Positions 8,626-59,950 are shown, numbered from the stretch's first letter. The stretch is DNA of 64,000 bases from Clostridiales bacterium (GCA_040766525.1 JAXGQI010000001.1:45346-109345); one strand, 5' to 3'. Program-made: numbers and translations. The notes: generated by a model not told the origin, from the sequence alone.

Positions 8626-8644
8626 ATCAACATAACATCGTGCT

Positions 8645-16808: not shown

Positions 16809-16861
16809 ATTCTCCTCCTTTGTACATTTTCTTTGCAATTTTTACTACACGCATACTAATT

Positions 16862-16877
16862 GCAAATCATATGCCAT
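16862..16877 (-). promoter_or_regulatory. sigma-54 (-24/-12) promoter for mttB: TGGCAT-ATGAT-TTGCA
   Basis: The reverse complement of 16862..16877 matches TGGCAC-N5-TTGCW except the last base of the -24 element. It sits about 55 nt upstream of the mttB ATG. The palindrome TGCAATATTGCA and a direct repeat ATATTGCATTAAA x2 at about 16955..17000 are candidate activator sites. Confidence 0.55.
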
Positions 16878-17073
16878 GAAAGGAGGCGAAACAAAATATT
16901 TTCTCCCCTCTTGGAACAGGGCGTTTTCATTTACACAAAATGAAACGCCCCAATGCTACTGCAATATTGCATTAAACATGCGCTCATATTGCATTAAAAC
17001 ATTGTGGCGACCCTCATTTATATCAAGTTTTTTGGCTCAAATTGACTTTATGCTGGCGCTTTACCTAATGCGT

Positions 17074-20382: not shown

Positions 20383-20581
20383 AATAATTCTCCTTTTCTT
20401 TTTGAAATAGCTATATTTTGGTCTCCGTTGGCACGAAGCACCGAAGCCGAATAAAATGGCATATACCGGTTGCCTTTTACCAAATGCGAACGCCTTCCTT
20501 ACATGCAGCCTGAGTTTTTTGTGGAACTTCCCACCGACCATTGGCTAGATCATGGAATCGCGCACACATCGATCTATTAAT

Positions 20582-43548: not shown

Positions 43549-43693
43549 ACTATCGCCTCCCAGAAAACATAACCCAATGGATGGCATGATCGGACAGCGA
43601 TGGCGCTTCAACCGCCGGATTTATTTATGTGTGCACATGGCTTTAAGGCACATCTTTCCGCAAATGGGACCCACTTCCGGGATTGCCATTGCG

Positions 43694-43730: not shown

Positions 43731-44104
43731 CCTTTGCGATCACGCTATTGCAAGAAAGAAGCATACGGCAATCGGTTTTCTTTTCATCCAACCGCTATTT
43801 TTCTTGCATTGCTACCTCTATTATACGAATACTGCCACGATATGACAATATCTATTACATTATTTATTCTGCGTAACCGATATAAATTTTACATTCCTAC
43901 CCCATTTTGCCATGAAACCATGGCTTGCCGCCAAAGATACGCAATATTTCCAGGCAACAAAAAAAGGCGAAATATGACAACCGAGAACCGTCGCCTCCAA
44001 ACTGCACCGTTCCCCGAAGAGCCATCACTTGGCTTGTAAGAAAAGCTCTCGTATTCTCACAAACCAAGAGGCTGCCAAGAAAGGGATTAGAGCAAGGCGC
44101 AAAA

Positions 44105-44160
44105 AAACCGCAGGACGCGATGTGTACATAGACGTACATGAGCGGTCTGCGGTTTTACCG
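44105..44160. terminator. bidirectional intrinsic terminator AAAAACCGCAGG...CTGCGGTTTT closing the long minus-strand operon
   Basis: 10-bp inverted repeat flanked by an A run and a T run, 135 nt after the radical SAM gene stop. Confidence 0.55.
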
Positions 44161-44294: not shown

Positions 44295-45343
44295 TCAAAG
44301 GGAAAAAGAACTGCCACTGGAAACAATTTCAAATGCCGTCTTTTTCAAAACACAATCCAAACTGTTTTCCAGCGTTTCCGTTTTATTGGTTATGATTCTT
44401 GAGGGACAACCTCCGGGACAATAGGCATAATACGGACATTGCACGCAGGATTCGCGTTCTTCACGACCGGTCAAGGCGATCTGGCGGATCGGGCCTTCAT
44501 GGATATTGCCCATCGCATATTCCTCCCGGTCAATCAAAGAGCCGCAGGGATAGACCGAACCCTCCGGCAATACCACATAGGATCGCCCACAGGAAGCATA
44601 ACAATAGTTTTTGCTGCAAGAGGGGCAAGAAAGTCTTCTTTTGGCCTCCTCAATCTCACGAATGGAGATCTTGACCCCGGTACTTTCACGCATGAAGCCT
44701 CGCTTCTCTGATGGAGCCGAAATAAGGCGGTTCGTAACGCTTCGGCTCCCGGCGCATGGAGCGAACAAAGACTCCCGGCCCGCTCTCCGGCAAAGCGAAT
44801 CAAATCCAAACCGATCCCTTTCACATTGCCGAGATAGACACTAAAATCCACCAGTTCGGGAAGACGTTCAACATTCTCCGCGGTAACGACGCTGTTAATA
44901 TTGATATTGATCCCGGCCTGGGCTAATTTCCGGATCCCGTTCACAGCCGATTTCGTTCCGCCTCTGAGCATTTCATTCACTTCGGGCGGTCCGTCCAAAC
45001 TCACGCCGACAGCGATCTGCATTCTCTTGATCTTGGCCGCAATCTCTTGGTCGATCAGGGTTCCGTTCGTCTGTAATTGGAACTGAACATCATAACCATG
45101 CCTCCGGATATATTCATCAATGCGGCAAATCAGGGCATAGTTTAGCAGCGGCTCGCCCCCGGCAAATTGGATCTTTAGCGGCGTATCCCCAAAATACTCC
45201 AAGACTTTGACGGCTGTGGGAAAGTCCATATCATGCTGCTGTTTCCTTGTGTCGGCATAACAATATTTACACTTGAGATTGCAGCGACCACTTGTCCATA
45301 AAACGATCAGTATTCTTTCTTTGCTCATAGATTGATTACGCAA
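44295..45343 (-). pseudogene. radical SAM / SPASM-domain enzyme (anSME / AhbD-NirJ / peptide-maturase-like); one frameshift near 44760
   Basis: CNLKCKYC radical SAM motif and GGEPLL motif (ORF 44534..45343); SPASM Cys clusters CPSCSKNYCYASCG, YPCGSL and CVQCPYYAYCPGGCP (ORF 44295..44768). Confidence 0.7.
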
Positions 45344-46373
45344 TAATTTCCTTCACTTTGTCTTCGATGAGGTCCATACTCAACAACGAATCTTCAAAGG
45401 GTCTCCTTCTCATACGGTGGGGCAATACATACGTTGCCGCTTCCTTTAAATCTTCCTTGCTGACGAAATCCTTCATATTATAGGCGGCAATCGTGAGAGC
45501 AGTTTTGATCATCACGATATCCGCCCGGTGCCCATCCACGCCGAAAGACATCGATATTTTGGCAGCGGTTTCCAATAGCTTATCATCAAATACAACTTGG
45601 GGCAAAAGCTCGGTCGCTTCCATGATTATTTTTGCCAGTTTTTCCTGCTCAAGACTGTAAGACTCTTTGAACTCATCGGCATTTTTTTCAAAGGCAAGGC
45701 GCCTTCTGATAACTTCGGCCCGCTGGGAAGTTTCATTTTCCCCAAGGACATCGACGACCAAACCAAAGCGGTCGATCAACTGCGGCCGCAAGTCTCCCTC
45801 TTCGGGGTTCATCGTGCCCACTAAGGTAAATTTGGCGGGATGGGTAAAGGAGATGCCTTCCCTTTCAATAAAGTTGACCCCCATCGCTGCGGAGTCCAAA
45901 AGGATATCCACCACATGATCGTCCAACAAATTGATTTCATCCACATATAGAATATTGCGGTTGGCCTGGGCCAAAATACCGGCCTCAAATTTCTTTTCGC
46001 CTTTTTTGATTGCCTGCTCAATATCGAGGGTACCCACTACCCGATCTTCCGTTGCGCTGATCGGCAAATCCACCACTTTCATCTTCGTTTGCAGGATTTG
46101 GTGGGGCAACCCTCCGGTAATGATCTTATAACAATCGTCACAAGCCTGCTCCGGATCATGGGGATTGCAGGAGAATTTGCAGCCTTCGATCTGATCCCGT
46201 TCCGGCAAGAGATCGGCCAAGGAGCGCACGGCAGTCGAGTTCGCCGTCCCTTTTTCTCCTCGGATCAAAACGCCGCCTAAAGACGGATTGATGATATTCA
46301 GTATCAAAGCAAGCTTCATCCGCTCCTGCCCAACAATCGCAGTGAAGGGATAAATTTTCTTTTTCAAATTCAT
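45336..46373 (-). CDS. chlI: ChlI/BchI-like AAA+ chelatase ATPase subunit with a Walker A Lys to Asn substitution (GEKGTANST)
   Basis: [31 protein letters not shown], sensor/arginine-finger regions conserved; 345 aa. Confidence 0.8.
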
Positions 46374-46401
46374 AATAGGGATCCTTTCTTAAAGTTATAT
46401 T

Positions 46402-47133
46402 TTATTCGGCTTTTTTGCAGAGTTTCACTCCGATATAGAGTAAAATCAAAAAATATCCGATCATAATTAACGGGTGGACCCACATGTTGATGAACAAATC
46501 GCTGTCCCGACGGATCGCAATACTGCTTTGCGTCAAAGGTAATATCCAGATCAGTTCTTTTAAGATCATCGGCATTCTGTCAAGGGGGAAAAAGGTGCCG
46601 CACAAAAAAGACATCGGCGTAATAATAAAATTCTGGAATTTGCTCATATCGGCATGGGATTCAATAATAATCCCGATCATAAAACCCAATGCCGAAAATA
46701 CCAGGCAATTCAAAACGACCATCAAAGACGCATATAAATCAAACTGAATATCCGCTCTGAAAATTAAACAAATCACGATGATTAATGCCGCCGCATACAT
46801 CCCTCTTAGGGCCCCGGCGGTAATTTTACCGATCGCGAAGGAACCCATATTGATCGGCGCCGTCATAAACTCTTCAAAGGTCTTATCATAGGTGCGGGAG
46901 ATATTGATATTATTTGCGATCGTCCCAAAACTTGTGGTCATGGAGCTCATGGCGATAATACCGGGGATCACGAAACTAAGATAACTGGACCCGTTAACGA
47001 CGGTGCTCCCGCCAATCCCCCAGCCAAAAGCAATCAAATAGAGCATCGGCGCGACCAAGAGACCCAAAGTAATCCCCCAAAACCGATTGCTGAATATAAT
47101 CCATTCATACCATAATATCGACAAAACTTTCAT
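46402..47133 (-). CDS. ABC-2 type transporter permease
   Basis: 6-TM ABC-2 family fold; translationally coupled to the ATPase at 47135 (a 1 nt gap between the two genes). Confidence 0.7.
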   Translation of the reverse strand: MKVLSILWYEWIIFSNRFWGITLGLLVAPMLYLIAFGWGIGGSTVVNGSSYLSFVIPGIIAMSSMTTSFGTIANNINISRTYDKTFEEFMTAPINMGSFAIGKITAGALRGMYAAALIIVICLIFRADIQFDLYASLMVVLNCLVFSALGFMIGIIIESHADMSKFQNFIITPMSFLCGTFFPLDRMPMILKELIWILPLTQSSIAIRRDSDLFINMWVHPLIMIGYFLILLYIGVKLCKKAE

Positions 47134-47134
47134 T

Positions 47135-47974
47135 TCAATCTCCTACTCTCTTATTGGTCAGCATAATGAATGTATCTTCCAAGTTACTTGGCCGGATATT
47201 GACGGTGGCATTGATCGTTGCCTCTTTTTCCAAAGCAGATTCTCTATCTTTAAAGAACAAGATCTTCGTTTCACCATCCTCGAAGCTTTCCAAGACAAAA
47301 GACCCGAATTTCTCGACCAAATTTTTCGGCGTATCCAGTTCAACAATTTTCCCCTGATCCATAAAGCCGACGCGGTTACACAATACTTCCGCTTCTTCGA
47401 TATAATGGGTCGTCAGGATTACCGTCATTCCATCCTTATTGAGGCCCTTCATCAGATCCCACAATTTTCTTCTTACGGAAGCATCCAAACCTACGGTCGG
47501 CTCATCCATCAATAATACTTCTGGACGATGCAACAATGCCCGGGCGATCATCAGTTTCCGCTTCATGCCCCCGGAAAAGGTTTTTACCTTGTCATTTCTT
47601 CTTTCGTATAAATCAATATAATGGAGAAGCTCGTCAATCCTCTCGTTCGCCGCCTCCTTTTTCATCCCGAAGAGTTTGGCATGAAGGGCAAGGTTTTGCC
47701 TTGCGGTCATATCCCACTCGAGATTGATATGTTGGGGCACGATACCGATCTTGGATTTGACCTGGGTTTCATTGCGGTCCAAGGGCACGCCCCCAATCAC
47801 GATCGTTCCCGAAGTCGGCTTTGTGAGCGTGCTCAACATCCGCACCATGGTGGTTTTCCCGGCGCCGTTGGGACCCAACAAACCAAAAAACTCGCCTTTC
47901 TCGATCCGCAAGCTCAGATGATTGACTGCAACCGTGGTTTCATATTCTTTTAATAAATCCGTGATTTCAATCAT
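47135..47974 (-). CDS. ABC transporter ATP-binding protein (ABC-2 exporter partner)
   Basis: Walker A GPNGAGKTT, signature FSGGMKRKL, Walker B LLMDEP. Confidence 0.8.
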   Translation of the reverse strand: MIEITDLLKEYETTVAVNHLSLRIEKGEFFGLLGPNGAGKTTMVRMLSTLTKPTSGTIVIGGVPLDRNETQVKSKIGIVPQHINLEWDMTARQNLALHAKLFGMKKEAANERIDELLHYIDLYERRNDKVKTFSGGMKRKLMIARALLHRPEVLLMDEPTVGLDASVRRKLWDLMKGLNKDGMTVILTTHYIEEAEVLCNRVGFMDQGKIVELDTPKNLVEKFGSFVLESFEDGETKILFFKDRESALEKEATINATVNIRPSNLEDTFIMLTNKRVGD

Positions 47975-48000
47975 TTTTCATTCCGCCTCATTCTATTTCC

Positions 48001-49917
48001 TTATAAAGACAATGCTACTGCCGCCACAACGCTCTCCGCACGGAGCTCTTCGATCTGGAAACGGTCCGCATTCATTGCCTTTGCCAGGTCTTCCGCCATT
48101 TTTAATTTGATAAAATTTTGATCCGTATCAATAACGATGGACTTGATTTGTTCCGCTGCGATCTTTTCGGCCGCACCCAATGCGTCGTCAAAAGCATCGA
48201 TCCCTTTTTGGCTATAGGTGGCTCTGCCATCGGTAACCACCACCACAACAGGAAGCATGTCCTTATCTTTGATCATTCCCGCTTTCACAACTTCATACGC
48301 CATATCGAGGCCTGCCGCAAGCGGCGTTCTGCCCCCGGTCGGCAAAATGCTCAGTTTTTTCTCCGCCAGTTCTACGCTCCGTGTAATCCCCAACAAAAGC
48401 TCGGCGCAATCATTGCGGAAAGCAATTAAGCCGACTTTATCCCTTTTTTGATAAGCGTCGTTCAAGAGGGATAAAATAGCGCCCTTTACGGCAATCATCC
48501 GTTTGTTCGCTCCCATAGAGCCGCTGGCGTCAACAACAAAAATAATGGTATTACCGGTCCGTTTCTCTCTCACTTTTACCCGAATATCCGAGCGGTGAAT
48601 CGCCACCGCCATGCCGTTTTTATCCCGGAACATGTGCTTAGGGGCCGCGGCCCGCAAAGTAGCGTCAATCGCGATATCCCGGATCTGATCATTGGCAGGG
48701 TACGCATAGCGAACATACCTTCCCTGCATACTGGAGGTATTCACCAAGCTGCGTTTTCCGCTGCCATGCTGGATCGTCTCGTTTCTTTTTTCCGCTAACC
48801 AACGGGAAACGATAAAGGGTTCTCCCGGATCGTCAACGGTTTCCTCCGCTTCTCCCGCTTGCATTTGCTCGTCAAAATCCTGGTCTTGCGGCGTCGTATC
48901 GGGTTCCTCGCAAAGCATTTCCTCTTCATCCGTCAAAGGATCTTCCGGGACCTCCGGTTCTTCAGGCGGCGTCTGCTCCCGGTTGTCATCGTTTTGATCC
49001 GCCGGCAAATCGGGATCATCATTTTGCGTGGGATCATCCTGCTGGTTGTGCTCCTCTTCCTGCTGCTCTCTCGACCGATGCGGCAAAGCGTATTTTGCGG
49101 CCTCTTTAATGTCGGTAATATTCAATACCGTTCTTTTATCAAGGGCGGCGATGGCTTTCGCCGCCTCGATGATGACGAGCTCCGCCCGATGCCCCGCACA
49201 ATTTGCTTCTTTCGCAATAGAGGAGGCCAACTGCATCGCATTAGGCGTAACGATAATTTCCGCCAGTCCTTCTTGGGCGGCGGTAATTTTTTCCCGCAGT
49301 GCTTTCGTTTCCTCCTGCCACTTTTTAATAAAAAGCAAAGGATCCCGTTCAAAGGCAATCCGCCTTCGGATGATCTCGACGCGTTTCCTGATATCGGTCT
49401 CCCCTTCTACCTGGACATAGAGACCGAAGCGGTCTAAAAATTGCGGGCGCAAACCGCCTTCTTCCGGATTCATGCTCCCGGCCAGAATAAATTTAGCGGG
49501 ATGACTATAGGAAATACCTTCCCTTTCAACGATGTTGACCCCGGATGCTGCCGACTCTAAAAGCGATTTTACAATATGGTCGCTCAAGAGATTCACCTCG
49601 TCCACATAAAGCAGGTTCCCATGAGCTTGATACAGCAATCCCGGCTCAAAGCGTTTTTCGCCGTATTTAACGGCATATTCAAAATCGATATTCCCAATCA
49701 GCCGGTCTTCCGTAATATTTAACGGCAGATCGACCAATGTGATAGCGGGAGCAATAGAACATATCCCTCGAACAAGCGTAGATTTTGCCGTTCCTTTTTC
49801 ACCGCTGATCAAAACACCGCCGATTTTGGGGTTGACGATATTCCAAATCAAAGCATTTTTTATTTCATCTTGCCCCAAAACCGCAGTAAAGGGGAAGACG
49901 GTATTTGGCTTTTGCAT
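48001..49917 (-). CDS. chlD: ChlD/BchD-like chelatase subunit: AAA+ module, acidic/Pro-rich linker, C-terminal von Willebrand A domain
   Basis: GEKGTAKST Walker A; long D/E/P-rich linker; vWA MIDAS (VVDASGSM). Confidence 0.8.
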   Translation of the reverse strand: MQKPNTVFPFTAVLGQDEIKNALIWNIVNPKIGGVLISGEKGTAKSTLVRGICSIAPAITLVDLPLNITEDRLIGNIDFEYAVKYGEKRFEPGLLYQAHGNLLYVDEVNLLSDHIVKSLLESAASGVNIVEREGISYSHPAKFILAGSMNPEEGGLRPQFLDRFGLYVQVEGETDIRKRVEIIRRRIAFERDPLLFIKKWQEETKALREKITAAQEGLAEIIVTPNAMQLASSIAKEANCAGHRAELVIIEAAKAIAALDKRTVLNITDIKEAAKYALPHRSREQQEEEHNQQDDPTQNDDPDLPADQNDDNREQTPPEEPEVPEDPLTDEEEMLCEEPDTTPQDQDFDEQMQAGEAEETVDDPGEPFIVSRWLAEKRNETIQHGSGKRSLVNTSSMQGRYVRYAYPANDQIRDIAIDATLRAAAPKHMFRDKNGMAVAIHRSDIRVKVREKRTGNTIIFVVDASGSMGANKRMIAVKGAILSLLNDAYQKRDKVGLIAFRNDCAELLLGITRSVELAEKKLSILPTGGRTPLAAGLDMAYEVVKAGMIKDKDMLPVVVVVTDGRATYSQKGIDAFDDALGAAEKIAAEQIKSIVIDTDQNFIKLKMAEDLAKAMNADRFQIEELRAESVVAAVALSL

Positions 49918-49925
49918 ATTTCTAC

Positions 49926-52900
49926 TTATCCCAAATCCTCGAGATCTCCTTCCATTTCCATATAAATTTTCTTGAGTTTTTCAACTTTATCTTCTGATGC
50001 ATTCCACATGCCGCGCTGATTCGCTTCAAGCAATCTCTCGGCTACATTGTGCAAGGCCCAGGGATTGACTTCCCGCATCCAATCCGTGTTCTCCTTATCG
50101 AAAGCGTATCTTTCGGCAATAGAGTCATACATCCAATCGTCGATCACATTGGTCGTCGCATCCCAGCCGAAGGCGAAATCTACCATGGCGGAAATCTGTT
50201 TGGCGCCGCGATAGCCGTGCTTCTTTAGGCCCTCGATCCACTTGGGATTATTGACTCTGGCCCGCATAACCCGGGAAGCTTCCTCATGCAGCGTCAAAGT
50301 TTCCACATGATCCGTGTCCGAGGTGCTGGGAACATAGGCCGGTTTTTGTGAGCCGCTGTGGGTCGTAATCGCCGCTACCATACCACCGAAATAATTATAA
50401 AAATCATCGCTGTCCAGCATATCAAATTCTCTGGTTGATTCATTTTTAACGGCGACGCTGACTTTTTTCATCCGCAGCGCAAAGGTTTCCGGAACCTTAT
50501 CTCCATGCACATGCTTCCCATAAACATGGCAACCCCAGGTCGTGTAGACCTTCCCCAAATCGGTTACATCATTCCATTTTTTGCTTTCCACAACATTATT
50601 GACTCCGGCGCCATAAGCTCCCGGCGCGTCGCCAAAGACCCGATACAAGGATTGGGTCGTTGCGGTTTCAAGATCAATACCTTGTTTGACCAGTTCTTCA
50701 ACTTCTTCCGTTACATGCTTCTTAATATAGTTCACATCATCCGTTTCATCCAGAGACGCCACCAAATTCACCGCATCTTCTACTCTCTCGATCAGATTGG
50801 GGAAAGCATCCCGAAATAATCCGGTGATTCTCAGCGTCACATCGATTCTCGGGCGGCCCAATTCCTCCATGGGGATGGCTTCAATTCCGATCACTCGATC
50901 CGTATTCCCTAACCAAACGGGACGAACCCCCAATAAATAAAAGGTCTCCGCGATGTCGTCGCCATAGTTCCGCATTGCTTCCGTAGCATAGACCAGGATG
51001 GATACGCTTTGAGGATAAACGCCGTCATCATGCAAAGACCGTTCAATCAATTGATCCGCCAAAATTTTCCCAATCTCCCAAGAAGAACGGGAGGGCATCG
51101 CGCCGGGATCAACGGAATAAAAATTCCTCCCCGTAGGCAAAATTCCCGCATTGCCTCTTGTGGGCGCGCCGGAAGGCCCCGGCGGAACAAATTTGCCGGA
51201 AACACCGCCGACCAGCCGATCCATTTCGTCCGTCATCCGCTGGATACGCGGTTTGATGAAGGTACAAACGAAGGTTAAACATTCTTTTAAGCGCTTCGTA
51301 CTGTTTTCCCGGTTGATTTGAAAGTCTTGGATGATACCGTCGACGGAATCCGCCGCAAAACCCTTTCCTTCCAGCGCGAGAAAAATATTTTCCGCAACTT
51401 CATCGGCTTCCCTAAGCAAAATCCCATAGGACTTGCCGTCTTGTGTCGCTGTTTCCGGATTGGCCAGCAAAGCTTCAAAATCCAGTCCCAATAAATCGCA
51501 AACGCCTTCTCTTAAAGAAGGAACTTCTCCGTTACGATTTCTGACCAGCATTTTCAGCATATTGCGATAGCGGTCGCCTTCCGGCACCATGCCGAGGATA
51601 TGGAAGCCATCGGCAATATCGCAGGCCTGCACTCTTGTGACCCAAGTATGCATCTTTTCGATACATTCATCGGGATCATTTGCCATCTCCTCATCGGTAA
51701 GACCGATGTCATCGTGCAAATTGATCTTTTTCCCAAGTTCCAATATCTCCTGCTGAACTAGGGGCAGCTTTTTCGGATCCGCAGCCTTGACATGATAATA
51801 CTGCTTCATCAATTCATCCATCTTCGCCAACTCATCGTACACGCCGCTTTCGACCATGGAGGGAATCATATGATCGACCAAAGTCGCATAGGTGCGTCTT
51901 TTCGCCTGGGTACCTTCTCCCGGCGCATTGATGATATAGACATAGAGATGCGGAATCGTTCCGATACAAATATCGCTGAAACAATCCTTGGACAACCCCA
52001 CTTCCTTGCCGGGGAGCCACTCGATTGTTCCATGGGTGCCGACATGAATGATCACATCCGCCTGGAAGACGTCTTCCACCCAACGATACACGCCGATATA
52101 TTGATGGGGACAGGGAATATCCGTGCTATGATACATTTCTTCCGCTTTTTCTTCAAAAGCCCGGGGCGGCTGCAAACCGATAAAAATATTCCCGTTCAAG
52201 ATCCCGGGGACTAAAAGCTGCTGATCCACCGCCATAAAATCCCCCACGGGCTCGTCCCAATATTTCACCAGGTTTTCTTTAATGCGAGGAATAAAAGGAT
52301 CATACCATTGGCGATACTTTGCTTCCGTTACCGTATCGATACTCTTGGCCAGCATATTCTCGGGAGACATCCAGCGCCCGTCATTCGTGAGCCCTTTCGT
52401 GATGGTATCGATAATCTCTTTACCGTCGGCAAAATGATATTGGGTATGAATCCCGGCTGCTTCCATCCTGGTAATCAATTTACAAACCGAAACCGGCGTA
52501 TCAAGACCCGCCGCACCGCCGATATTATCGTTGCGGGGCGGATTGTTATGCAGAATAATGGCAACCTTCTTCTCGCTGTTGTCTTTATGGCGCAATATGG
52601 CCCATTTGATCCCGATCGACACGATGTTTTTAATGCGATCCGCAATGGGAGCGGCATATCTTCTGGTACCCAATTCCGTTTCTTCCAATTCCGTTGTGGC
52701 AAAGGGATACGTAATAACTTGGCCGTCAAATTCCGGTTGGAATACGCTCCAACTCAAGGACAAGCTGTCGATCCCTTTCACCGATATTTCCCATTCTTCA
52801 TACGATTGCATGGTGGTCATCAACTGGAACACCGGTACGCCAAACTGTTCAAAAATACTGTTTTCCTGGGGTTTGGAACCATCTCCGGGGGCGGAAATGA

Positions 52901-53648
52901 TGCTCAAACTGTGCCCGGTCGTATTGATGATGGCGTCCACGATCGGCCGGTCTTCAGACAACATATACTGTTGCAAAGTCGCCTTGATCCCCAGACAACC
53001 GAGATCCGCATTGGGCAGCAACTCGGCATAGATACATAGGGGCATGGCATTTTGCTTCTTCATTTCCCGGATCAAGGCATCAATATGTAAGCGATTCTTT
53101 TTTTGCATGAGCATCACATTCATAATGATGCCAATCACCGGTTGATTACTGTTTTTTATCTTCGCTATATAGGCCGCTTCATCCACCGTCTCCTCGTCGG
53201 GATCATAAATCCCACTCCATTTAGGGCAAACCGGCAGATCCAGGGGAACATCCAATCCTGCGAACTGATTGCCGATCCACTTGATGAGATTCAGCATATT
53301 ATTGAGCCCGTCGGATTTAAAATAGCGAAACATGGTTTTGAAATCATCGTGCATGATCTGACATTGCGGAAATAATTCAGCGACTTCTTCTTCGATTGTC
53401 GTATTGATAAAGAATTTCTTTTTGCCCTTGAAGCGCTCATAATATTTCAAAAAGCTTTTGAAAAATGACAGGGAGCCGAAAATATTGATAAAAACAAAAT
53501 CAGCTTTTTCCGTCGCCTTCCGCACATGCGGCATAGATCTCTTCATCGTCATCGAGCTCCGTGGTATTGAATAGATCAAGATGATACATGCCCGGATATT
53601 CTTCCTCCAGCTTACTCTGAGCCTCCTTAAAGGTAAGGAAGGGCTCAT
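49926..53648 (-). CDS. cobN: CobN/ChlH-family large chelatase subunit (class I ATP-dependent cobaltochelatase-like)
   Basis: 1240 aa intact ORF with CobN/Mg-chelatase H similarity (HVGTHGTIEWLPGKEVGLS). Confidence 0.85.
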   Translation of the reverse strand: MSPSLPLRRLRVSWRKNIRACIILIYSIPRSSMTMKRSMPHVRKATEKADFVFINIFGSLSFFKSFLKYYERFKGKKKFFINTTIEEEVAELFPQCQIMHDDFKTMFRYFKSDGLNNMLNLIKWIGNQFAGLDVPLDLPVCPKWSGIYDPDEETVDEAAYIAKIKNSNQPVIGIIMNVMLMQKKNRLHIDALIREMKKQNAMPLCIYAELLPNADLGCLGIKATLQQYMLSEDRPIVDAIINTTGHSLSIISAPGDGSKPQENSIFEQFGVPVFQLMTTMQSYEEWEISVKGIDSLSLSWSVFQPEFDGQVITYPFATTELEETELGTRRYAAPIADRIKNIVSIGIKWAILRHKDNSEKKVAIILHNNPPRNDNIGGAAGLDTPVSVCKLITRMEAAGIHTQYHFADGKEIIDTITKGLTNDGRWMSPENMLAKSIDTVTEAKYRQWYDPFIPRIKENLVKYWDEPVGDFMAVDQQLLVPGILNGNIFIGLQPPRAFEEKAEEMYHSTDIPCPHQYIGVYRWVEDVFQADVIIHVGTHGTIEWLPGKEVGLSKDCFSDICIGTIPHLYVYIINAPGEGTQAKRRTYATLVDHMIPSMVESGVYDELAKMDELMKQYYHVKAADPKKLPLVQQEILELGKKINLHDDIGLTDEEMANDPDECIEKMHTWVTRVQACDIADGFHILGMVPEGDRYRNMLKMLVRNRNGEVPSLREGVCDLLGLDFEALLANPETATQDGKSYGILLREADEVAENIFLALEGKGFAADSVDGIIQDFQINRENSTKRLKECLTFVCTFIKPRIQRMTDEMDRLVGGVSGKFVPPGPSGAPTRGNAGILPTGRNFYSVDPGAMPSRSSWEIGKILADQLIERSLHDDGVYPQSVSILVYATEAMRNYGDDIAETFYLLGVRPVWLGNTDRVIGIEAIPMEELGRPRIDVTLRITGLFRDAFPNLIERVEDAVNLVASLDETDDVNYIKKHVTEEVEELVKQGIDLETATTQSLYRVFGDAPGAYGAGVNNVVESKKWNDVTDLGKVYTTWGCHVYGKHVHGDKVPETFALRMKKVSVAVKNESTREFDMLDSDDFYNYFGGMVAAITTHSGSQKPAYVPSTSDTDHVETLTLHEEASRVMRARVNNPKWIEGLKKHGYRGAKQISAMVDFAFGWDATTNVIDDWMYDSIAERYAFDKENTDWMREVNPWALHNVAERLLEANQRGMWNASEDKVEKLKKIYMEMEGDLEDLG

Positions 53649-53691
53649 TCGCTGTCATGATCACTACGAGATTCAACATGTTTTCCTCCTA

Positions 53692-54921
53692 TTATTCAGC
53701 CGTAAAGGGCATAATCAAGAAATGTTCAAAGCTGTCAACGGTAATAGTATCAAAGGAATCCGGATAGAAGAACTCCGCCATTTCCACATATTTCCCATCG
53801 ATATTATGATAAGAATTCCAATAATCGTCCGTAATCTGGAGAACATTGCCTTCAGCCATACAGGAAAGATCTGCCAACACCGGAAGCTGATCAATGATGG
53901 ACTGAATATCCGCCCCATATTTCGGCATCCCTCTGTTAATGAAGATATCCGCATCACTCATGCGAGCATAGAACTCTTCCGCCGTAATGGTTGTAACCCC
54001 ATCAACACCAACGCCGATATCATCAAACACATATTCCCCACCGCAATCCCGGACCATTTGCGCGCTGCTCGATCCGGCATTCTCAACATAAATCGTGCCA
54101 TTGACAACAATGCCCCAACCGACTTTTACTTTGGATTCTGCATCAATCCCGGCAGTCGCTTCCATGATTCCGTCAATATTGGCCATGGCAGCATCGAAAT
54201 ACTCTTCCGCTTCAATTTCTAAGTTATAGAAGGCGGCAAAAAACTTCACCCATTCCATGATTCCCCGGTAATCACTTTCGGAACTGGAACCGTCAAATAC
54301 ATAAGGAATACCGGCTTCATCCAGCATTGCCATCAATTCAACCTGTTCTGTGCCCATCCCCGCATTGGTGAAAACCACATTGGGAAGCAAAGCCTGTACG
54401 ATCTCATAATCATAACTGGTCGACATGGTCGTATTGCTGCCGACGTCTACGATCTGGCCGCTTTGCATCCGGGTACGCATCGCATCAAAATCCCAATCCT
54501 CTTCGGTTGCCCGCACGCCGACGATGCTATCATATAAATCTTCATCAGAGAAGGCTCTCAAATAGCCGACTTGGGTCGTGCTGGAAGAGATCACATTGCT
54601 GATCGGAATGGTAAGCGCCGTCAGATCGGCATATTCTTCAGGAGCGGTTTGCCCTTCTTGCAAAAGCAGTACCTGGCTCCCCTGGCCATCCGTAACCAAT
54701 TTCATACCGTCTTCAAGATATTCAATACTAAAATTCGTTGCATAAGATAATTCCATCGTACTGCCTGCCGGATACTTGGCAATAACATCTTCCACACTGC
54801 CGCCATATACGGAATCCCCACTTACGTTCACGGCGTCTTCCGCACAACCGGTGAATAAGACGGCAGTCAAACCCACCATGCATAAGATGGCCCCAAGGCA
54901 TTTAAATAACCTTTTTTTCAT
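53692..54921 (-). CDS. btuF: BtuF/FecB-like periplasmic substrate-binding lipoprotein (corrinoid/siderophore type ABC)
   Basis: Lipobox LFTGCAED, class III SBP fold similarity; 409 aa. Confidence 0.7.
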   Translation of the reverse strand: MKKRLFKCLGAILCMVGLTAVLFTGCAEDAVNVSGDSVYGGSVEDVIAKYPAGSTMELSYATNFSIEYLEDGMKLVTDGQGSQVLLLQEGQTAPEEYADLTALTIPISNVISSSTTQVGYLRAFSDEDLYDSIVGVRATEEDWDFDAMRTRMQSGQIVDVGSNTTMSTSYDYEIVQALLPNVVFTNAGMGTEQVELMAMLDEAGIPYVFDGSSSESDYRGIMEWVKFFAAFYNLEIEAEEYFDAAMANIDGIMEATAGIDAESKVKVGWGIVVNGTIYVENAGSSSAQMVRDCGGEYVFDDIGVGVDGVTTITAEEFYARMSDADIFINRGMPKYGADIQSIIDQLPVLADLSCMAEGNVLQITDDYWNSYHNIDGKYVEMAEFFYPDSFDTITVDSFEHFLIMPFTAE

Positions 54922-54953
54922 CGTTTACATTCCTCCCTGTTTTCCCTAAATAT

Positions 54954-56080
54954 TTAATTTTTATTTAATGCAATTGCAACCATCGTAACGATAGTTACAA
55001 AACGATCCAGCATAAAATCGATGCAAGCCTCTGGTTCCGTCCAAGACCCTTCTTGCGCTTGCCATTCGATGGAATAGGTTGCCGCGATCTGCCCCAGAAT
55101 CATCTCTCCTCCGATCACCGTTTCGTTAAGCGAGAGTAAGCCCCATTGTAATTGATCCAGCAAATGTACGAATAATGAAGTATAGATAACCATTTCTTTA
55201 TTGCCGTCGAGCAAATGGAGCTGATGGACAAAGTCAGCCTTGGCCATGTTCACATCCGGGAACTGATCCAATTTATCGCAAAACGCTTTCTCGGCAACTT
55301 GGTATCTTTTCAAGCGTGCCCCAATACTGTGCTGGCTTTTTGCCGATAAACCCATATGGAGATGCAGAGATTCCTTGACCGCCGCCATCACCGTCTTGCC
55401 GATCAATTCTCCCAATTTCCCATGTTTCCCCGCATATGTCAGAACATTGTCGGATTCCCCGTTTGCAATAATCATGACATTATCGGTTCCGGATCCGGTG
55501 GCAATGCCGGAAGAATACAAACTGCCTGCGATCAACTCTGAAGAGCCGCCGTTTTTGCTTCCGTTGCCGTAACGATGGCCCGGGCCATACAACCGGGGGT
55601 CATATCGGCATTCGCAAAAACCATCATATTGATCGTTCCCGGCCGTAAGCTGACGCTGCTGCCATGCTTTTCATAACTTGTCGCCGCTTCACCCACACGA
55701 CCTCCGTTCACTTCAAGGCTGGCGGTCACGATTGCGGTAACCGTCAACACATCGTATGTCATGCTCTTGATCACGGCGCTTTCCATCGATACGATCGTCG
55801 CCATATAGGCCACAGATTCATAATCAAGCCCCAAATCTTCTTGAACAAATCTCTTGATTTTCTCTTCAGCGCCGGGCTGGCAATATTCGCAAGGCATCCC
55901 GGGGCCGGGATTCACATCGCGGTTAAATACCGCCGTCAGATCTTCACGATAGCCGCCATTATGCATGGAAGTGCTCATCACCTTGCGTTTTCCCTCAAAA
56001 GGAACGACGATACAGCGCCTAAAACGATGAATCGGATCCCCCGTGGCTAATACATCAATCATCATGTGCAATCCCTCCAT
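54954..56080 (-). pseudogene. cbiZ: CbiZ-like adenosylcobinamide amidohydrolase with an extra C-terminal domain; one frameshift near 55560
   Basis: The N-terminal half (ORF 55532..56080: MSTSMHNGGYREDL...) and the C-terminal half (ORF 54954..55592: DNVMIIANGESDNVLTYAGKHGKLGELIG...) are in different frames. Confidence 0.55.
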
Positions 56081-57286
56081 TTATTGTTGTTTGTCATTTA
56101 AGATCATCCCGATCAATGTATGCAGATTTGAACAACATACAACTTTGGCCGCTGCCGCGCCGAAGCGTCTGCTCATTTCCTCCGCAGGACAAAGGGAGAA
56201 TACTTTTTTGCCGCAAGCAACCGCATTGTTTAATAAATCCAAGTTGCCCTGATTATTATTCCCCAAGGGGAAACCCGTATCGATCACATGATCGACCGAA
56301 GCGATTTTATCCGCCGCGATTGCCAAACTTTCCGCACTGATATTATGAAACGCATGCTCCTCGATCATTTCGCAATTCAGTGCCTTGCCAATGTGGAGAT
56401 CAATATCATTGCTGTGCAAAACACCGCAGTACATCCCCAATCCGGCGCGGGCCAACGCCCGATAAACGCTGACGCCGGTTCCGTTCCCGCCGGTGACAAA
56501 AACTTCCGGTTTTTGGGGACTGTTAAATTCCAAACTACCCATCAATTCATTGTAATGAGCGCCTTCAATCGCATAAAGTTTTTGGATAGTTCCGGCTTGA
56601 ATGATTTCCTCCGGGGTTCCCTGAGCCACAATCTTCCCGTTTTGAACCAATAAAATCGTCTGGCAGCCCTTGATCGCCAAATCGATATCGTGTAAGGATA
56701 AGACCACGGTGATCCCCTTTTTCACACACAATTCCTGGAGGATCCGGATCACTTCCACTTTGTGCTTGACATCGAGATGGCTTGTGGGTTCATCCAAAAC
56801 AATTAGTTCCGGCTCTTGCACAAGGGCACGGGCGATCATGATCTTCTGCTTTTCCCCATCGCTTAGCTCAGAATAATACCGATCTTTCAGCCATAGGGCA
56901 TCCGTCGCCGCCAAGGCCTCCTCGACAATTTGAATATCGTGCTCCGTCAGCTTACCGAGATAATTGGTGTGGGGATAGCGGCCCATTGCGGCGATCTCAA
57001 AGACGGTGAGAAAGCCCAAGGATAACTGTTCCGTCAAGACGATGGCCAGTTTCTTCGCCAAATCCCCTTTATTAACCTGAAGCAAATCGGTCTCGTTCAC
57101 ATAGACCGTTCCGTTTACCGGCGCAAGCAAGCCTGTCAATGTTCTGAGAATCGTCGATTTCCCTGCGCCGTTCGGGCCCAAAAGACAAATCAGCTGGCCC
57201 CGGATCCCATTGATGTTGACATTCTCCACAACAACTTTCTTCTCATAACCAACGTCCAGGTTTTTTGCGACAATGACTTGATTCAT
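56081..57286 (-). CDS. btuD: BtuD/FecE-like ABC ATP-binding protein with a ~150-aa C-terminal extension of unknown function
   Basis: Walker A GPNGAGKST, LSDGEKQK signature, ILDEPTSHLD; 401 aa. Confidence 0.8.
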   Translation of the reverse strand: MNQVIVAKNLDVGYEKKVVVENVNINGIRGQLICLLGPNGAGKSTILRTLTGLLAPVNGTVYVNETDLLQVNKGDLAKKLAIVLTEQLSLGFLTVFEIAAMGRYPHTNYLGKLTEHDIQIVEEALAATDALWLKDRYYSELSDGEKQKIMIARALVQEPELIVLDEPTSHLDVKHKVEVIRILQELCVKKGITVVLSLHDIDLAIKGCQTILLVQNGKIVAQGTPEEIIQAGTIQKLYAIEGAHYNELMGSLEFNSPQKPEVFVTGGNGTGVSVYRALARAGLGMYCGVLHSNDIDLHIGKALNCEMIEEHAFHNISAESLAIAADKIASVDHVIDTGFPLGNNNQGNLDLLNNAVACGKKVFSLCPAEEMSRRFGAAAAKVVCCSNLHTLIGMILNDKQQ

Positions 57287-58341
57287 AATTCATTCTTCTT
57301 TCTTAATAACAGATAAACGACGATCGGGGCCCCGATCAATGATGTAATCGCGCTAAGCGGCAATTCGATCGGGGATAACAGCATTCTAGCGCCAAAGTCA
57401 CATAAAGCTGTCATAAAGGCCCCGGCAACGATAACGCCCGGTATCAAAATGCGGTTGTCGGATGTTTTGAATATGATCCTCACCATGTGCGGCACGGCAA
57501 GCCCCACGAAGGAGATCGGTCCGGCAAAAGCCGTGATGCCGGCAGTGAGAATACTGGAGATGATGATAATCACGACCCGAAACCGCTTAATATTCACCCC
57601 CATAGAAATCGCATAATTCTCTCCGAACAACAACGCATTCAAAGGTTTACTGAGGAAAAATGATAGGAGCACAAAAGGCCCCGCCAAAAAATAGAGATAT
57701 TTAACTTGTTCCCATGAGATACCGGAAAAGCTCCCCAATGTCCACATAACATAACCTGCGATCTGTTCCTTATCGGCAAAGGAAGTCAAAATACTCGTCA
57801 TCGCGCTGCAAATAAAGCCTGCCATAATCCCGATAATCAATAAGGTCGTCACATTCTTGACTTTTTTTGCGGCTAAAACCACAACGGCCATGATCAACAT
57901 CGCCCCCATGAAAGCGCCGAGGAACAGCACCATGGGGCTTGCATTGTTAAAACCAAAAGTGTAACCGCCCAAAATAACCAATCCGACAAATAAGCTGGCC
58001 CCGGAAGAAATCCCCAGTACATAAGGTTCCACAATCGGATTTCGAAAGAAAATCTGCAATAACAGCCCGGAAACAGATAAACACGCGCCGCCGATAATCG
58101 TCGCCAAAACCCGCGGCAACCGGATATCCATCACGATCGACGTAAATACCGGGTTCCCGACATCCATACCCAAAAGTATTTTCACGACCTTGGCGAAACT
58201 AATATTTACAGAGCCGATCGATATCCCCAAAATGCAGATAAAGACCGTCATTGCCGTTATGATCGTGATCATCAGCGCATAACCGCATTTTCTTTTTGCC
58301 ATCTCTTTCATGCTTTCTCTCTTTCCAGCAAACAAATCCAT
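57283..58341 (-). CDS. btuC: BtuC/FecCD-family ABC permease
   Basis: FecCD permease fold with about 9-10 TM helices; overlaps btuD by 4 nt. Confidence 0.8.
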   Translation of the reverse strand: MDLFAGKRESMKEMAKRKCGYALMITIITAMTVFICILGISIGSVNISFAKVVKILLGMDVGNPVFTSIVMDIRLPRVLATIIGGACLSVSGLLLQIFFRNPIVEPYVLGISSGASLFVGLVILGGYTFGFNNASPMVLFLGAFMGAMLIMAVVVLAAKKVKNVTTLLIIGIMAGFICSAMTSILTSFADKEQIAGYVMWTLGSFSGISWEQVKYLYFLAGPFVLLSFFLSKPLNALLFGENYAISMGVNIKRFRVVIIIISSILTAGITAFAGPISFVGLAVPHMVRIIFKTSDNRILIPGVIVAGAFMTALCDFGARMLLSPIELPLSAITSLIGAPIVVYLLLRKKNEL

Positions 58342-58360
58342 TGCTAAGGTTTTTTAAACA

Positions 58361-58399
58361 TAAAAAAAAGAAACACTCTGTTCTTCTGAGTGTTTCTTA
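58361..58399 (-). terminator. riboswitch-controlled intrinsic terminator immediately upstream of btuC
   Basis: Minus strand: AAGAAACACTC-AGAAGAACAG-AGTGTTTCTT followed by a T8 run. Confidence 0.7.
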
Positions 58400-58487
58400 A
58401 ATATTTATTTTGCTTTTGAATTCATATTACGGTATTGCCAAAAAATGCAAAAATAGCCACTACCCTACCCAGGAGAACTATCAAATC

Positions 58488-58620
58488 CGGCAGGTCTACC
58501 GACTGAACTTCATCCTACTCGGAAACCTTCCCATGCCCAAAGAGCACAGTGGTCATTATCCTTTCGTCCGTATCACGGTTGCTGGGACAGTACGGGATTT
58601 CCCGTTTCCCTATTAAGCAA
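58488..58620 (-). ncRNA. cobalamin (B12) riboswitch
   Basis: The minus strand reads AATAGGGAAACGGGAAATCCCGTACTGTCCCAGCAACCGTGA ... GACCACTGTGC (B12 box) ... GGGAAGG ... GATGAAGT ... AGTCGGTAGACCTGCCGG. This matches the remembered cobalamin riboswitch consensus. Confidence 0.8.
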
Positions 58621-58815
58621 ATGCACCGAATCACTATTTTTTTACAATTATAAACAAGTGTCCAAAAAAAATCAAGTCTTATTTGCTCTTTTTTTCAATA
58701 AGGCGGCGAAAAATGCAAATAATCAAACGCAGGTAAAATTTCACCACCCGCTAATGAGCCCCAGGAGATACGCTTCAATACGCAGGGGAAATCGTCTGCT
58801 GTTAATTCCAAATCC

Positions 58816-59950
58816 TTACTGTCGCCGACTGGTTTTATCTTTGTACATAATCTGGTCAGTAATTCGAACCAGCTCTTCCATTTTATATTTTACAGAGTGA
58901 TCGACATACAAAAGCCCATAACTCAGCGTAGTTAAATAGGGTTTATGAGAAGAGTATTCCATCAGTACCTGATCAACTCTTTTTATATAAGAATGCCCGA
59001 TATCATTTGTAGATTCAAGAATAACAAAGAATTCATCTCCTCCAAATCGGCAAACATAATCCTCAAAATTTGCGCTGGAGAGAAGAATTCTGGCAACATC
59101 CTTCAATACTTGGTCTCCGACAGTATGACCATAAATATCGTTAATATTCTTAAAATCGTTCACATCAATCATAATGGCAGTGAAGGGTTCCTGTGATTTT
59201 AATTTGTATTGAAGCCGGCTTTCCATTTGTATGCGGGAGTTCAACAGGGTCAGCGGATCTTTTAACAGTTCATTCCTTTCCACCAGCAGAAAACTGATGA
59301 ATATAGCAAGTGTATAAGCCGGAATACTTAAAGATAATCCGTAAAGAGCGTTTGCAGTAAAACTCCTATGACAGGAAGCAAAGTCAGGGCTAAAATAACT
59401 TGGGTAATTCGTCCTGTAATCATTTGTTTATTGCGGAAAAAACTTAGGACAATGATTGCGACAAACAGAAACGTAAACCCATTCCCAATATAAACTGCAA
59501 CCCCTCGATGATACACATTGACTAAGTCAATGCGAAAAAGAAAACCCATCGAAAAATAAGTTGTATATCACAAACCCGATATTGAGATATACCGGCGCCA
59601 GATAGAGGAAGAATTTCTTTTTGTTCTTCTCCTTGGATACAGATATGATATAGTCCAGATAGCAAAGACCGAGCGCTGCGGGTAAGGTGTTAAAGGAGAA
59701 GAAAGAGCATTACTCAAATAATGAAATGATCTTAAGGAGTCATTATTGGGAACGCCAATGATCCAAGCCACTGTTCAAACAAAGCCACTACGATTACAGA
59801 CAAAACAAACCATAGGAAAAGTCTTGTCGAATAACTTTGGCGAGATTTTTGTTTATATAGAAATACATACATAACTATGTTAATGATAATGCTAAATATC
59901 AACAGATCACTATATTCAATATTGTTTATATAAAACATATGAAATCCCCT
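58816..59950 (-). pseudogene. membrane-anchored GGDEF diguanylate cyclase, frameshifted
   Basis: GGDEF domain in ORF 58816..59283 (RFGGDEFFVILE); TM-rich N-terminal fragments in ORFs 59328..59549 and 59732..60010. Confidence 0.55.

Follow-up and report, generated by a model that had tools for sequence, protein, structure and literature searches.

A Probable B12-Regulated Corrinoid-Acquisition Operon with a Dedicated CobN-Type Chelatase in a Clostridiales Bacterium

Introduction

The operon described here was found on the minus strand of a stretch of 64,000 nucleotides from a Clostridiales bacterium (GCA_040766525.1, JAXGQI010000001.1:45346–109345), which in its full length is called the window below. 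A cobalamin riboswitch is followed by genes for corrinoid import (btuFCD) and salvage (cbiZ), for a class I chelatase (cobN, chlD, chlI), for an ABC-2 type ATP-binding cassette (ABC) transporter pair, and for a radical S-adenosylmethionine (SAM) enzyme with a SPASM domain. The closest described system is operon-2 of Dehalobacter restrictus PER-K23 (Dehre_0281–0292; PMC4285132), which contains the same ten protein families, has a riboswitch upstream and encodes a CobN that is 76–77% identical to that of the window. The window carries the full operon-2-type set on one strand, and the locus belongs to a known operon type. The combination of genes, described in an earlier note on this DNA from the sequence alone, is not new, as the operon type was published in 2015. 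We conclude that the locus is very probably an operon for corrinoid acquisition that is under B12 control and includes a dedicated chelatase of the CobN type.

Unlike the window, D. restrictus operon-2 contains an extra pair of btuF and cbiZ genes at the front and shows the downstream order chlD-chlI-radical SAM-ABC-ABC2, and the window copy differs from it by frameshifts in three genes and by a Walker A mutation. A syntenic cluster was reported in Acetobacterium woodii, and the cobalt importer genes cbiMNQO were reported upstream of operon-2 in D. restrictus (Rupakula et al., 2015; PMC4285132). In the parts of that paper considered here, the chelatase is only referred to as a 'salvaging enzyme', and the exporter and the radical SAM gene are not discussed.

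Among the characterized class I chelatases, the aerobic cobaltochelatase CobNST (7c6o, 9uk9) has a large subunit of the same family as the window CobN, with the same His/Glu/Asp site and the motifs PGEGTQAKRR and DSDD. In contrast to CobNST, the window encodes a ChlI/ChlD-type motor and adaptor instead of CobS and CobT, and 'REHD' is replaced by REFD or REVD. Besides, the host of the window-type operon is a strict-anaerobe-type Firmicute, the genetic context is uptake and salvage rather than the cob pathway, and hosts of window-type operons were reported to have a cobalt-early pathway (cbi genes in D. restrictus, cbiK in the Ilyobacter operon). In the CobN plus ChlI/ChlD chelatases of the TIGR02442 type from actinobacteria, cyanobacteria and pseudomonads, which are thought to serve de novo aerobic synthesis, BchI/BchD-like partners likewise replace CobS and CobT; window-type proteins differ from these in scoring below the model cutoff, in having ChlI and ChlD encoded by separate genes, and in their salvage context in anaerobes. 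HmuS, BtuS1 and BtuS2 of Bacteroidota (9d26) are further members of the CobN superfamily whose genes lie in loci for tetrapyrrole uptake, and they contain the HxGxHG histidine. Unlike window-type CobN, HmuS is anchored in the membrane and faces the periplasm, has His-1209 as well as a Met-rich insertion, and is NADH-dependent, without a ChlI/ChlD partner. The Mg-chelatase ChlH/ChlI/ChlD shares the three-subunit architecture, and the partners in the window are nearer to ChlI/ChlD than to CobS/CobT, whereas the large subunit in the window does not contain the ChlH motifs PSEATIAKRR and DVSHYFD. No chlorophyll-pathway genes were seen among the annotated open reading frames (ORFs) of the window.

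The role of class I chelatase homologues in strict anaerobes and archaea is a long-standing question. CobN-like 'BtuS' proteins were regarded as a third CobN type, with metalloporphyrin salvage predicted for one group (Rodionov, 2003, as quoted in Rocha, 2019), and in a structural paper from 2025 the functions of archaeal CobN-annotated proteins are called unclear. The view of the earlier note, that a chelatase, an exporter and a SPASM enzyme in one transcript correspond to no assigned pathway, agrees with the literature reached here. To our knowledge, the linkage of cobN to the ABC-2 pair in both bacteria and archaea, the apparent dedication of one radical SAM subfamily, and the riboswitches on chelatase genes together with the exchange of importers are not stated in that literature.

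Results

Type of Chelatase

Gene families were assigned by Pfam and NCBIfam profile searches, and NCBIfam matches were judged against the curated cutoffs. The intact CobN orthologue from the nearest relative (L001, GCA_032941855.1), which is 84% identical to the window CobN, scored above the cutoff of the CobN model TIGR02257 (946 vs. 822 bits) and below that of the BchH model (752 vs. 829 bits). The best solved relatives were CobN of M. tuberculosis (7c6o, 757 bits) and CobN 9uk9 (630 bits), followed by ChlH (457 bits) and HmuS (354 bits). According to a 2026 preprint, two Co2+ ions are placed at H554, E593, and D1100 of 9uk9. The His (52032–52034), Glu (51915–51917), and Asp (50406–50408) of this putative Co2+ site are conserved in the window CobN, and alignment columns showed the site to be kept throughout the clades with at least 35% identity to it, including archaeal ones. 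The histidine of the superfamily motif HxGxHG was conserved as well, and the CobN-like motifs PGEGTQAKRR and DSDD were present where ChlH has PSEATIAKRR and DVSHYFD. For both small subunits, the best NCBIfam match was TIGR02442, 'putative cobaltochelatase', with scores below its cutoff (694 and 494 vs. 779 bits).

No transmembrane-like or hydrophobic segment, no signal-like N-terminus and no Met-rich insert (at most 7 Met per 100 residues) was found in window-type CobN. Since hydrophobic segments and a signal-like N-terminus are missing, the protein is probably soluble and cytoplasmic. An identity as HmuS-type de-chelatase was rejected on the basis of the missing membrane anchors, the missing Met-rich insertion, and an Asp at the position aligned with His-1209; this position comes from our own alignment to the motif LSLDHxxEFMGG as quoted in the HmuS paper. 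An identity as ChlH-type Mg-chelatase was likewise rejected, with a score below the BchH cutoff and active-site motifs of the CobN kind.

Cobn paralogues with less than 35% identity, present as a second or third copy of the gene within one locus (in L007, L010, L013–L015, L017, L021, L024, and others) often had degenerate metal-site motifs, for instance HVGTGGSLEY, or SSSF replacing DSDD. Judged by these motifs, such paralogues may be non-catalytic or have different substrates.

Conservation of the Gene Set in Bacteria and Archaea

A homologue scan of one genome per species gave at least 594 related stretches, of which 80 loci were kept with 10-kb flanks and annotated with ten reference proteins by BLAST; partner counts were made from the 58 loci of at least 15 kb (29 bacterial and 29 archaeal). 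The hosts named in the loci were acetogens, organohalide respirers, methanogens, and similar anaerobes. In the nearest relative, L001, all ten genes were found intact and in an unchanged order. In the counted loci, cobN was accompanied by chlI or chlD in 76% of the bacterial and 69% of the archaeal cases, by btuC plus btuD in 72 and 66%, and by the ABC-2 pair in 55 and 62%, respectively. The corresponding figures were 59 and 7% for btuF, 59 and 24% for cbiZ, and 62 and 0% for the radical SAM gene. Archaeal BtuF-like proteins elude BLAST, and three of them were detected by Pfam in one Bathyarchaeota locus. The ABC-2 pair was often located directly after cobN, including in Bathyarchaeia, Methanomassiliicoccales, and other methanogens. 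Radical SAM homologues (46–58% identity) on contigs outside the CobN list adjoined cobN and chlI/chlD in all three cases sampled, and by its gene neighbourhoods this radical SAM subfamily looks like a dedicated partner of the chelatase, in bacteria only. Many loci contained two to three cobN paralogues and several binding proteins.

The conservation of gene order, which the earlier note had proposed to check, was found only in part: the order was identical in L001, but the internal order differed between other genomes. What did hold is that the linkage of btu and cbiZ genes with the chelatase is non-random, as relatives keep them beside the chelatase genes.

Five neighbourhoods of close and distant homologues were annotated with Pfam. 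All five contained importer genes and four contained cbiZ, and no corrin-ring cbi genes were found in them except for one cbiJ and one cbiK. The cobalt importer genes cbiMNQO were located directly upstream of the operon in Acetobacterium. In Ilyobacter, a CbiK without a signal-like N-terminus was encoded together with CobN within one riboswitch-headed operon, which argues that the two chelatase classes are not simple substitutes for each other.

The chelatase was found paired with three importer designs: BtuFCD, a TonB-dependent receptor with BtuFCD (Fusobacterium), and an energy-coupling factor (ECF) transporter with a DUF4430 protein, a domain that we take to be transcobalamin-like. The last design was seen in L090 (7221–19455), where the order was riboswitch-chlD-chlI-radical SAM-cobN-EcfT-EcfAA'-S component-DUF4430 and where BtuFCD, CbiZ, and the ABC-2 pair were absent. 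That a non-homologous importer can take the place of BtuFCD, with chelatase and radical SAM gene being kept, is the strongest sign from the comparison that an imported substrate is handled by the chelatase.

A 924-aa surface protein with Big_2, DUF4430, and SLH domains headed the operon in L088. The Bathyarchaeota locus L035 (2149–7926) contained three BtuF-like binding proteins around chlD-btuCD-cobN-cbiZ-ABC-2. In the Methanomassiliicoccales locus L041 (3964–5373, 8188–8808), cobN was directly preceded by a gene for an isochorismatase-family hydrolase, and a CbiA/CobB-type a,c-diamide synthase was encoded nearby. Beside the window-type operon of L089, on the opposite strand (11217–18244), we found a cluster with a NifH-like protein, two NifD/K-like proteins (Oxidored_nitro), FecCD, an ABC ATPase, Peripla_BP_2, and a methyltransferase, which is predicted to combine a nitrogenase-like reductase with an importer of the tetrapyrrole or siderophore type.

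B12 Regulation of Homologous Operons

Rfam cobalamin riboswitches were found to precede the homologous operons of L001, L005, L013, L018, L028, L015, L024, L023, L043, L087, and L088. No riboswitch was found at the Rfam threshold in L003, a locus from a Dehalobacter metagenome-assembled genome that had a transposase-family gene at the contig start, upstream of the operon. In two Clostridium genomes a riboswitch was located directly before chlI-chlD (L015, 20135–20308; L024, 16739–16912), and others lay directly before chlD (L090, 6946–7129) and directly before a cobN (L008, 9398–9572). All of these are placed independently of the btu genes, and the positions predict the chelatase genes to be B12-regulated in their own right. 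Tandem cobalamin riboswitches headed homologous operons in Clostridium (L013, 4196–4691; L015, 3668–4329; L085, 4465–4841), which suggests a sharper or dual-ligand response.

Expression data were published for D. restrictus operon-2. The transcript of its first gene was reported to be up 346-fold under B12 limitation (Rupakula et al., 2015; PMC4285132). At low compared to high B12, the same source gives a 65-fold increase for the BtuF-like protein, 21-fold for the second BtuF, 58- and 80-fold for CbiZ and 83-fold for BtuD, as well as 31-fold for CobN, 46-fold for ChlD, 28-fold for ChlI, 17-fold for the radical SAM protein and 29-fold for the ABC ATPase. Every detected product of the operon-2 set was thus reported to be induced 17- to 83-fold by B12 starvation (PMC4285132). 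Together with the riboswitches of the chelatase genes in other genomes, the co-induction of this 76–77% identical homologue bears out the earlier suggestion that the chelatase block is coupled to B12 control. By analogy with the Dehalobacter homologue of the operon, the riboswitch of the window would act by ligand-dependent repression.

CbiZ and the Radical SAM Enzyme

Cbiz was intact at 375 aa in L001, and the CbiZ domain was split over two frames in the window. In an AlphaFold model of the CbiZ homologue P0122 (m3919e9536eb2, pLDDT 88.7), the N-domain showed the amidase fold of DmpA, NylC, and ornithine acetyltransferase; a fold search of the PDB gave only distant amidase folds (TM-score at most 0.39) and nothing closer. 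The C-terminal extension of about 140 aa was modeled as a helical domain, for which no PDB match to the model and no Pfam match at E ≤ 10 was found. This extension was considered as a link to CobN and rejected: the long form is common among Firmicute CbiZ homologues (347–371 aa) and, being general in Firmicutes, is uninformative about the chelatase.

In the intact orthologue of the radical SAM protein, CX3CX2C was found at residues 16–23 (Cys 16/20/23) and nine further Cys at residues 234–307 of the SPASM region, including CX2CX5CX3C. Among the characterized radical SAM/SPASM subfamilies in NCBIfam, none scored above cutoff (PapB, 118 vs. 340 bits; anSME, 105 vs. 349 bits), and other models gave 90 vs. 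500 bits for NirJ2 and 69 vs. 500 bits for AhbD. A maturation cluster for a ribosomally synthesized and post-translationally modified peptide was also considered and rejected. The gene junctions of at most 32 nt leave no space for a precursor-peptide gene, there is no leader-recognition (RRE) domain, the cluster motif beginning at residue 16 so that no N-terminal domain is present, and in archaea the pump occurs with no radical SAM gene.

Layout and Control Elements of the Operon in the Window

The features of the operon are listed in Table 1. Ten co-directional genes were found on the minus strand, with all nine junctions being at most 32 nt long or overlapping, and their Pfam families agree with the gene content given in the earlier note. 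The note's riboswitch with a terminator of its own was confirmed as well, by an RF00174 match far above the gathering score of 31.5 bits and by a terminator hairpin between aptamer and btuC (11-bp stem, 9-nt loop, U8); the span given for it, 58361..58620, cuts off the 5′ end of the aptamer. This hairpin dominated both the minimum free energy and the centroid folds of the leader, and it was missed by the automatic terminator scan because of its 9-nt loop. No alternative antiterminator pairing was identified for it. The bidirectional closing terminator of the note corresponds to a strong, potentially bidirectional hairpin (−32.9 kcal/mol, z = −3.56; 0 of 200 shuffles folded as well). Within the operon, terminator-like matches were at chance level (19 found vs. 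18.5 expected from shuffled sequence), and one promoter-like match was found just 5′ of cobN (53738..53711, 10/12).

Table 1. Control elements and genes of the riboswitch-headed operon (window coordinates).
Feature	Position	Strand	Evidence
Sigma-70-like promoter, TTGATT-17-TATAAT	58647..58675	-	Consensus scan 10/12, consensus match only; directly 5′ of aptamer
Cobalamin riboswitch aptamer (Rfam RF00174)	58472..58644	-	88.4 bits, E = 1.7e-20, model 1–189 (full length)
Riboswitch terminator, stem AAGAAACACUC/GAGUGUUUCUU then U8	58360..58398	-	Read from sequence
btuC, FecCD permease	57283..58341	-	Pfam FecCD 277 bits; 87% identical to L001 orthologue
btuD, ABC ATPase with ~150-aa C-terminal MJ0874-type domain	56081..57286	-	Pfam ABC_tran
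cbiZ, long form ~375 aa, frame broken near 55539	54954..56080	-	Pfam CbiZ (PF01955)
btuF-like lipoprotein substrate-binding protein	53692..54921	-	Pfam Peripla_BP_2; LFTGC lipobox at N-terminus
cobN, class I chelatase large subunit, ~1250 aa	49926..53679	-	Pfam CobN-Mg_chel 1230 bits
chlD-like adaptor: AAA+, acidic Pro-rich linker, vWA	48001..49917	-	Pfam AAA_5, AAA_lid_2, VWA_2
ABC ATPase, DrrA/NodI type	47135..47974	-	Pfam ABC_tran; NCBIfam drrA 279 bits, below cutoff
ABC-2 permease, NodJ/DrrB type	46402..47133	-	Pfam ABC2_membrane
chlI-like AAA+ motor	45336..46373	-	Pfam Mg_chelatase, AAA_lid_2
Radical SAM/SPASM, ~338 aa, frame broken near 44786	44295..45343	-	Pfam Radical_SAM, SPASM
Closing terminator, A-run and U-run flanks, potentially bidirectional	44104..44156	.	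Fold and terminator scan

The true start of btuC is likely the ATG at 58311, as the length of 1029 nt from there agrees with the comparison to L001. For the C-terminal domain of BtuD, the only label is PF27219 (MJ0874), found in orthologues, and no further Pfam match was obtained at a relaxed threshold. With a FecCD permease, an ABC ATPase and a cluster-A binding protein, a complete BtuFCD gene set is present according to Pfam. The best NCBIfam match of BtuD was 'corrinoid ABC transporter ATPase', below its cutoff; all BtuC and BtuD equivalogs of NCBIfam were below cutoff, and haem and siderophore models scored similarly. A corrinoid is therefore inferred as the BtuFCD substrate from the context of the riboswitch and cbiZ. 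The chlD-like protein contains, as read from the sequence, an acidic Pro-rich linker and a DASGS (DxSxS-type) motif, which in our own reading would be a MIDAS-type site.

Lesions in the Window Copy

Comparison with L001 showed four lesions in the window copy, which the earlier note had not seen: three of ten genes are frameshifted and ChlI has no Walker A lysine. In cobN, a 1-nt insertion near 53510–53523 (codon ~55) cuts the authentic N-terminus off from the rest; the gene in fact starts with the ATG at 53679 (MLNLVVIMTANEPFLTFKEA...), and the ORF behind the 'cobN (1240 aa)' of the note is an artefact of the insertion. In cbiZ, a 1-nt deletion near 55539 gives two frames (55532–56080 and 54954–55592), with positions 2–138 of the Pfam CbiZ profile on one ORF and 138–191 on the next. 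In the radical SAM/SPASM gene, a 1-nt deletion near 44786 gives the ORFs 44534–45343 (Radical_SAM) and 44295–44768 (SPASM). The Walker A motif of ChlI was GEKGTANST, with Asn in place of the Lys of GEKGTAKST found in 44 of 45 homologues. The Asn codon is AAC (46239–46241) and the L001 codon AAA, and the change was unique among the 45 homologues. Programmed frameshifting, known for some chlD genes, was rejected as an explanation, as the shifts affect cobN, cbiZ, and the radical SAM gene and do not occur in relatives.

Because of the three frameshifts and the Lys-to-Asn change, the system in the window sequence may be inactive, unless the lesions are assembly errors. That the lesions are real and the operon is decaying into a pseudo-operon in this organism, which would be independent of the function of the intact system, is a serious possibility though below an even chance. 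It is consistent with four independent lesions within 14 kb, one of which, the Walker A change, is a substitution and thus harder to put down to indel-type assembly errors than the three frameshifts. The public protein records of the same assembly are truncated pieces (P0001, 1206 aa; P0121, 173 aa; P0320, 269 aa), which shows that the lesions are present in the deposited sequence, and there are Dehalobacter strains with documented loss of the equivalent operon. On the other hand, all three indels concern a single base and none lies in a run longer than 3, and at least one other window gene is split likewise, an MTTB-family gene outside the operon (18972–20541, minus strand; profile positions 21–294 and 299–490 in two frames), a pattern expected of long-read assembly errors. 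Otherwise no in-frame stop codons were found, and synonymous differences to L001 far exceed non-synonymous ones (141 vs. 41 codons in chlI). Apart from the lesion sites, the operon genes look selected.

Other Features of the Window

The upstream neighbour of the operon is an ORF with only a GGDEF domain (58816–59283, minus strand; 155 aa, possibly truncated), with a terminator-like hairpin of its own (58751–58729), and the downstream neighbour encodes a 919-aa hybrid sensor kinase with an SBP_bac_3 domain (40852–43611, minus strand). A PYLIS_3 pyrrolysine insertion element (92 bits; 15733–15832, minus strand) was found inside mttB (ORFs 15341–15784 and 15830–16267), and the upstream one of these ORFs ends in TAG, which indicates that UAG is read as pyrrolysine in this organism, by CobN identity a Firmicute related to Dehalobacter and Acetobacterium. 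For this MttB, no in-frame sequence was found for the N-terminal ~195 residues. Besides, a c-di-AMP (ydaO/yuaA) riboswitch (94.8 bits; 8631–8764, plus strand) was found upstream of ORF 8848–9711.

Discussion

The following mechanism would account for the intact system. When corrinoid is plentiful, the aptamer would be bound and the terminator hairpin with its U8 run would stop transcription before btuC; when corrinoid is scarce, transcription would continue for about 14 kb to the closing terminator. Following the established functions of their families, the BtuF lipoprotein with BtuC and BtuD would import corrinoids, and CbiZ would hydrolyze the nucleotide-loop amide to give cobyric acid for rebuilding. 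Together, CobN, ChlI, and ChlD would be a class I chelatase of the cobalt (CobN) type, soluble in the cytoplasm and driven by ATP, that acts on the macrocycle delivered by the importer and not in a de novo pathway. Most likely, this chelatase would insert or re-insert Co2+ into a corrin-type ring that has no usable cobalt on arrival. The ABC-2 pump would be a dedicated partner that probably exports a rejected macrocycle or by-product, and the radical SAM/SPASM protein a dedicated bacterial accessory whose target is the macrocycle or a protein of the system rather than a leader peptide. Insertion of cobalt is favoured over removal because of the CobN-type metal site and the ATP motor, the ring-conserving CbiZ and the co-located cobalt importers. 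We put forward the explanation as a whole, mechanism included, as the best available, at somewhat less than even confidence, and hold the single step of cobalt insertion into an imported corrin only tentatively.

According to a biosynthetic alternative, which we regard as unlikely, CobN and ChlI/ChlD would be an ATP-driven high-affinity cobalt chelatase for the cell's own B12 pathway, replacing or backing CbiK/CbiX at low cobalt, and would lie beside uptake genes through a shared B12 regulon. The CobN-type active site and the TIGR02257 score agree with this, B12 riboswitch control is typical for biosynthetic genes, and cbiJ and cbiMNQO are found directly upstream in Acetobacterium and Dehalobacter. 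Besides, half of the Methanomassiliicoccales genomes were reported to be without cbiK, and the types of cobalt chelatase were reported not to follow the split between aerobic and anaerobic pathways. However, the chelatase is set among importer and cbiZ genes and not among cbi ring genes, and it can share one operon with CbiK. It was strongly induced in D. restrictus, whose ring pathway was reported to be broken (truncated cbiH). The presence of two to three cobN paralogues and several binding proteins in many loci also argues against a biosynthetic role, and such a role leaves the linkage to the ABC-2 pair and the radical SAM gene unexplained.

A removal of metal, as carried out by HmuS, is quite improbable for the window-type system. 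Here imported corrinoids or metalloporphyrins that cannot be used would be stripped of their cobalt or other metal, the radical SAM enzyme would assist in ring reduction or opening, and the emptied ring would leave the cell through the ABC-2 pump. HmuS is a proven de-chelatase of the CobN family, ChuW-type radical SAM enzymes free iron from haem anaerobically, an exporter is linked to cobN in bacteria as well as in archaea, and proteins of Methanosarcina barkeri annotated as 'BtuS' (CobN-like) respond to iron and sulfur supply. These points are opposed by the missing hallmarks of HmuS and the Asp shared with CobN at the aligned His-1209, and by the retained ChlI/ChlD motor, whereas the activity of HmuS is NADH-dependent. 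Cobalt in a corrin is kinetically very inert, CbiZ on the same transcript preserves the corrin instead of destroying it, and cobalt importers are co-located.

In a third alternative, derived from the 'BtuS' idea and in our view very improbable, the substrate of importer and chelatase would be haem, sirohaem or a different tetrapyrrole, with B12 involved only through regulation. FecCD/Peripla_BP_2 systems do carry haem and siderophores too, BtuS1 and BtuS2 influence how Bacteroides fragilis uses iron from haem, and Rodionov's prediction of metalloporphyrin salvage, as quoted by Rocha (2019), points the same way. In contrast, CbiZ, the cobalamin riboswitches and the alternative importer of ECF type with DUF4430 all indicate corrinoids, the active-site motifs are CobN-like and not ChlH- or HmuS-like, and the Bacteroides proteins are predicted to be membrane-anchored and periplasmic, whereas window-type CobN is probably cytoplasmic. 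Finally, chance adjacency of independent transport, chelatase, and radical SAM modules, with which the varying internal gene order would agree, has a negligible probability and is effectively refuted by the recurrence of the same families together in bacteria and archaea and by the co-induction of the homologous proteins in D. restrictus, and the junctions of at most 32 nt are too short for a terminator plus a promoter.

Several observations weigh against the insertion of cobalt into imported corrins by a CobN-type chelatase. The canonical 'REHD' of CobN is changed to REFD or REVD in the window-type clade, CobS and CobT are absent from the operon, the partners being ChlI/ChlD-like by Pfam and NCBIfam, and ChlD is below the TIGR02442 cutoff. 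To this, the four lesions in the window copy have to be added. The literature search found no paper that assigns an activity to the window-type CobN clade, and the reported absence of cbiK from half of the Methanomassiliicoccales genomes fits a biosynthetic role at least as well. Insertion of cobalt does not naturally explain either the linkage of the exporter to cobN in two domains or the radical SAM enzyme; exporter and radical SAM enzyme are poorly accounted for by every model. We know of no abundant environmental pool of free cobalt-less corrinoids.

An extended form of the salvage reading, which we consider doubtful, would include both of these partners: CobN/ChlI/ChlD and the ABC-2 pump, joined in bacteria by the radical SAM enzyme, would make up a dedicated cytoplasmic machine that re-metalates, metal-exchanges or quality-controls imported corrins and expels rejects. 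If this is true, the machine would represent a salvage step that is absent from the textbook B12 pathway and is shared by lineages ranging from Clostridia and Fusobacteria to Bathyarchaeia and Methanomassiliicoccales, and corrinoids that are cobalt-less or mis-metalated would have to be available as a pool in the environment.

The window locus itself contributes little beyond another, possibly damaged, example of the operon type, and organisms with an intact operon are better models. The comparison adds constraints on the family. The anaerobe CobN clade retains a cobalt-chelatase-type active site together with an AAA+ motor, it is tied to corrinoid import via three importer families, and it is linked to the ABC-2 pair in two domains and, within bacteria, to one particular subfamily of radical SAM/SPASM enzymes. 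If the chelatase indeed acts on imported corrins, B12 salvage would contain an unrecognized metal-handling step, and this step would bear on cobamide cross-feeding in guts, dechlorinating consortia, and methanogenic systems.

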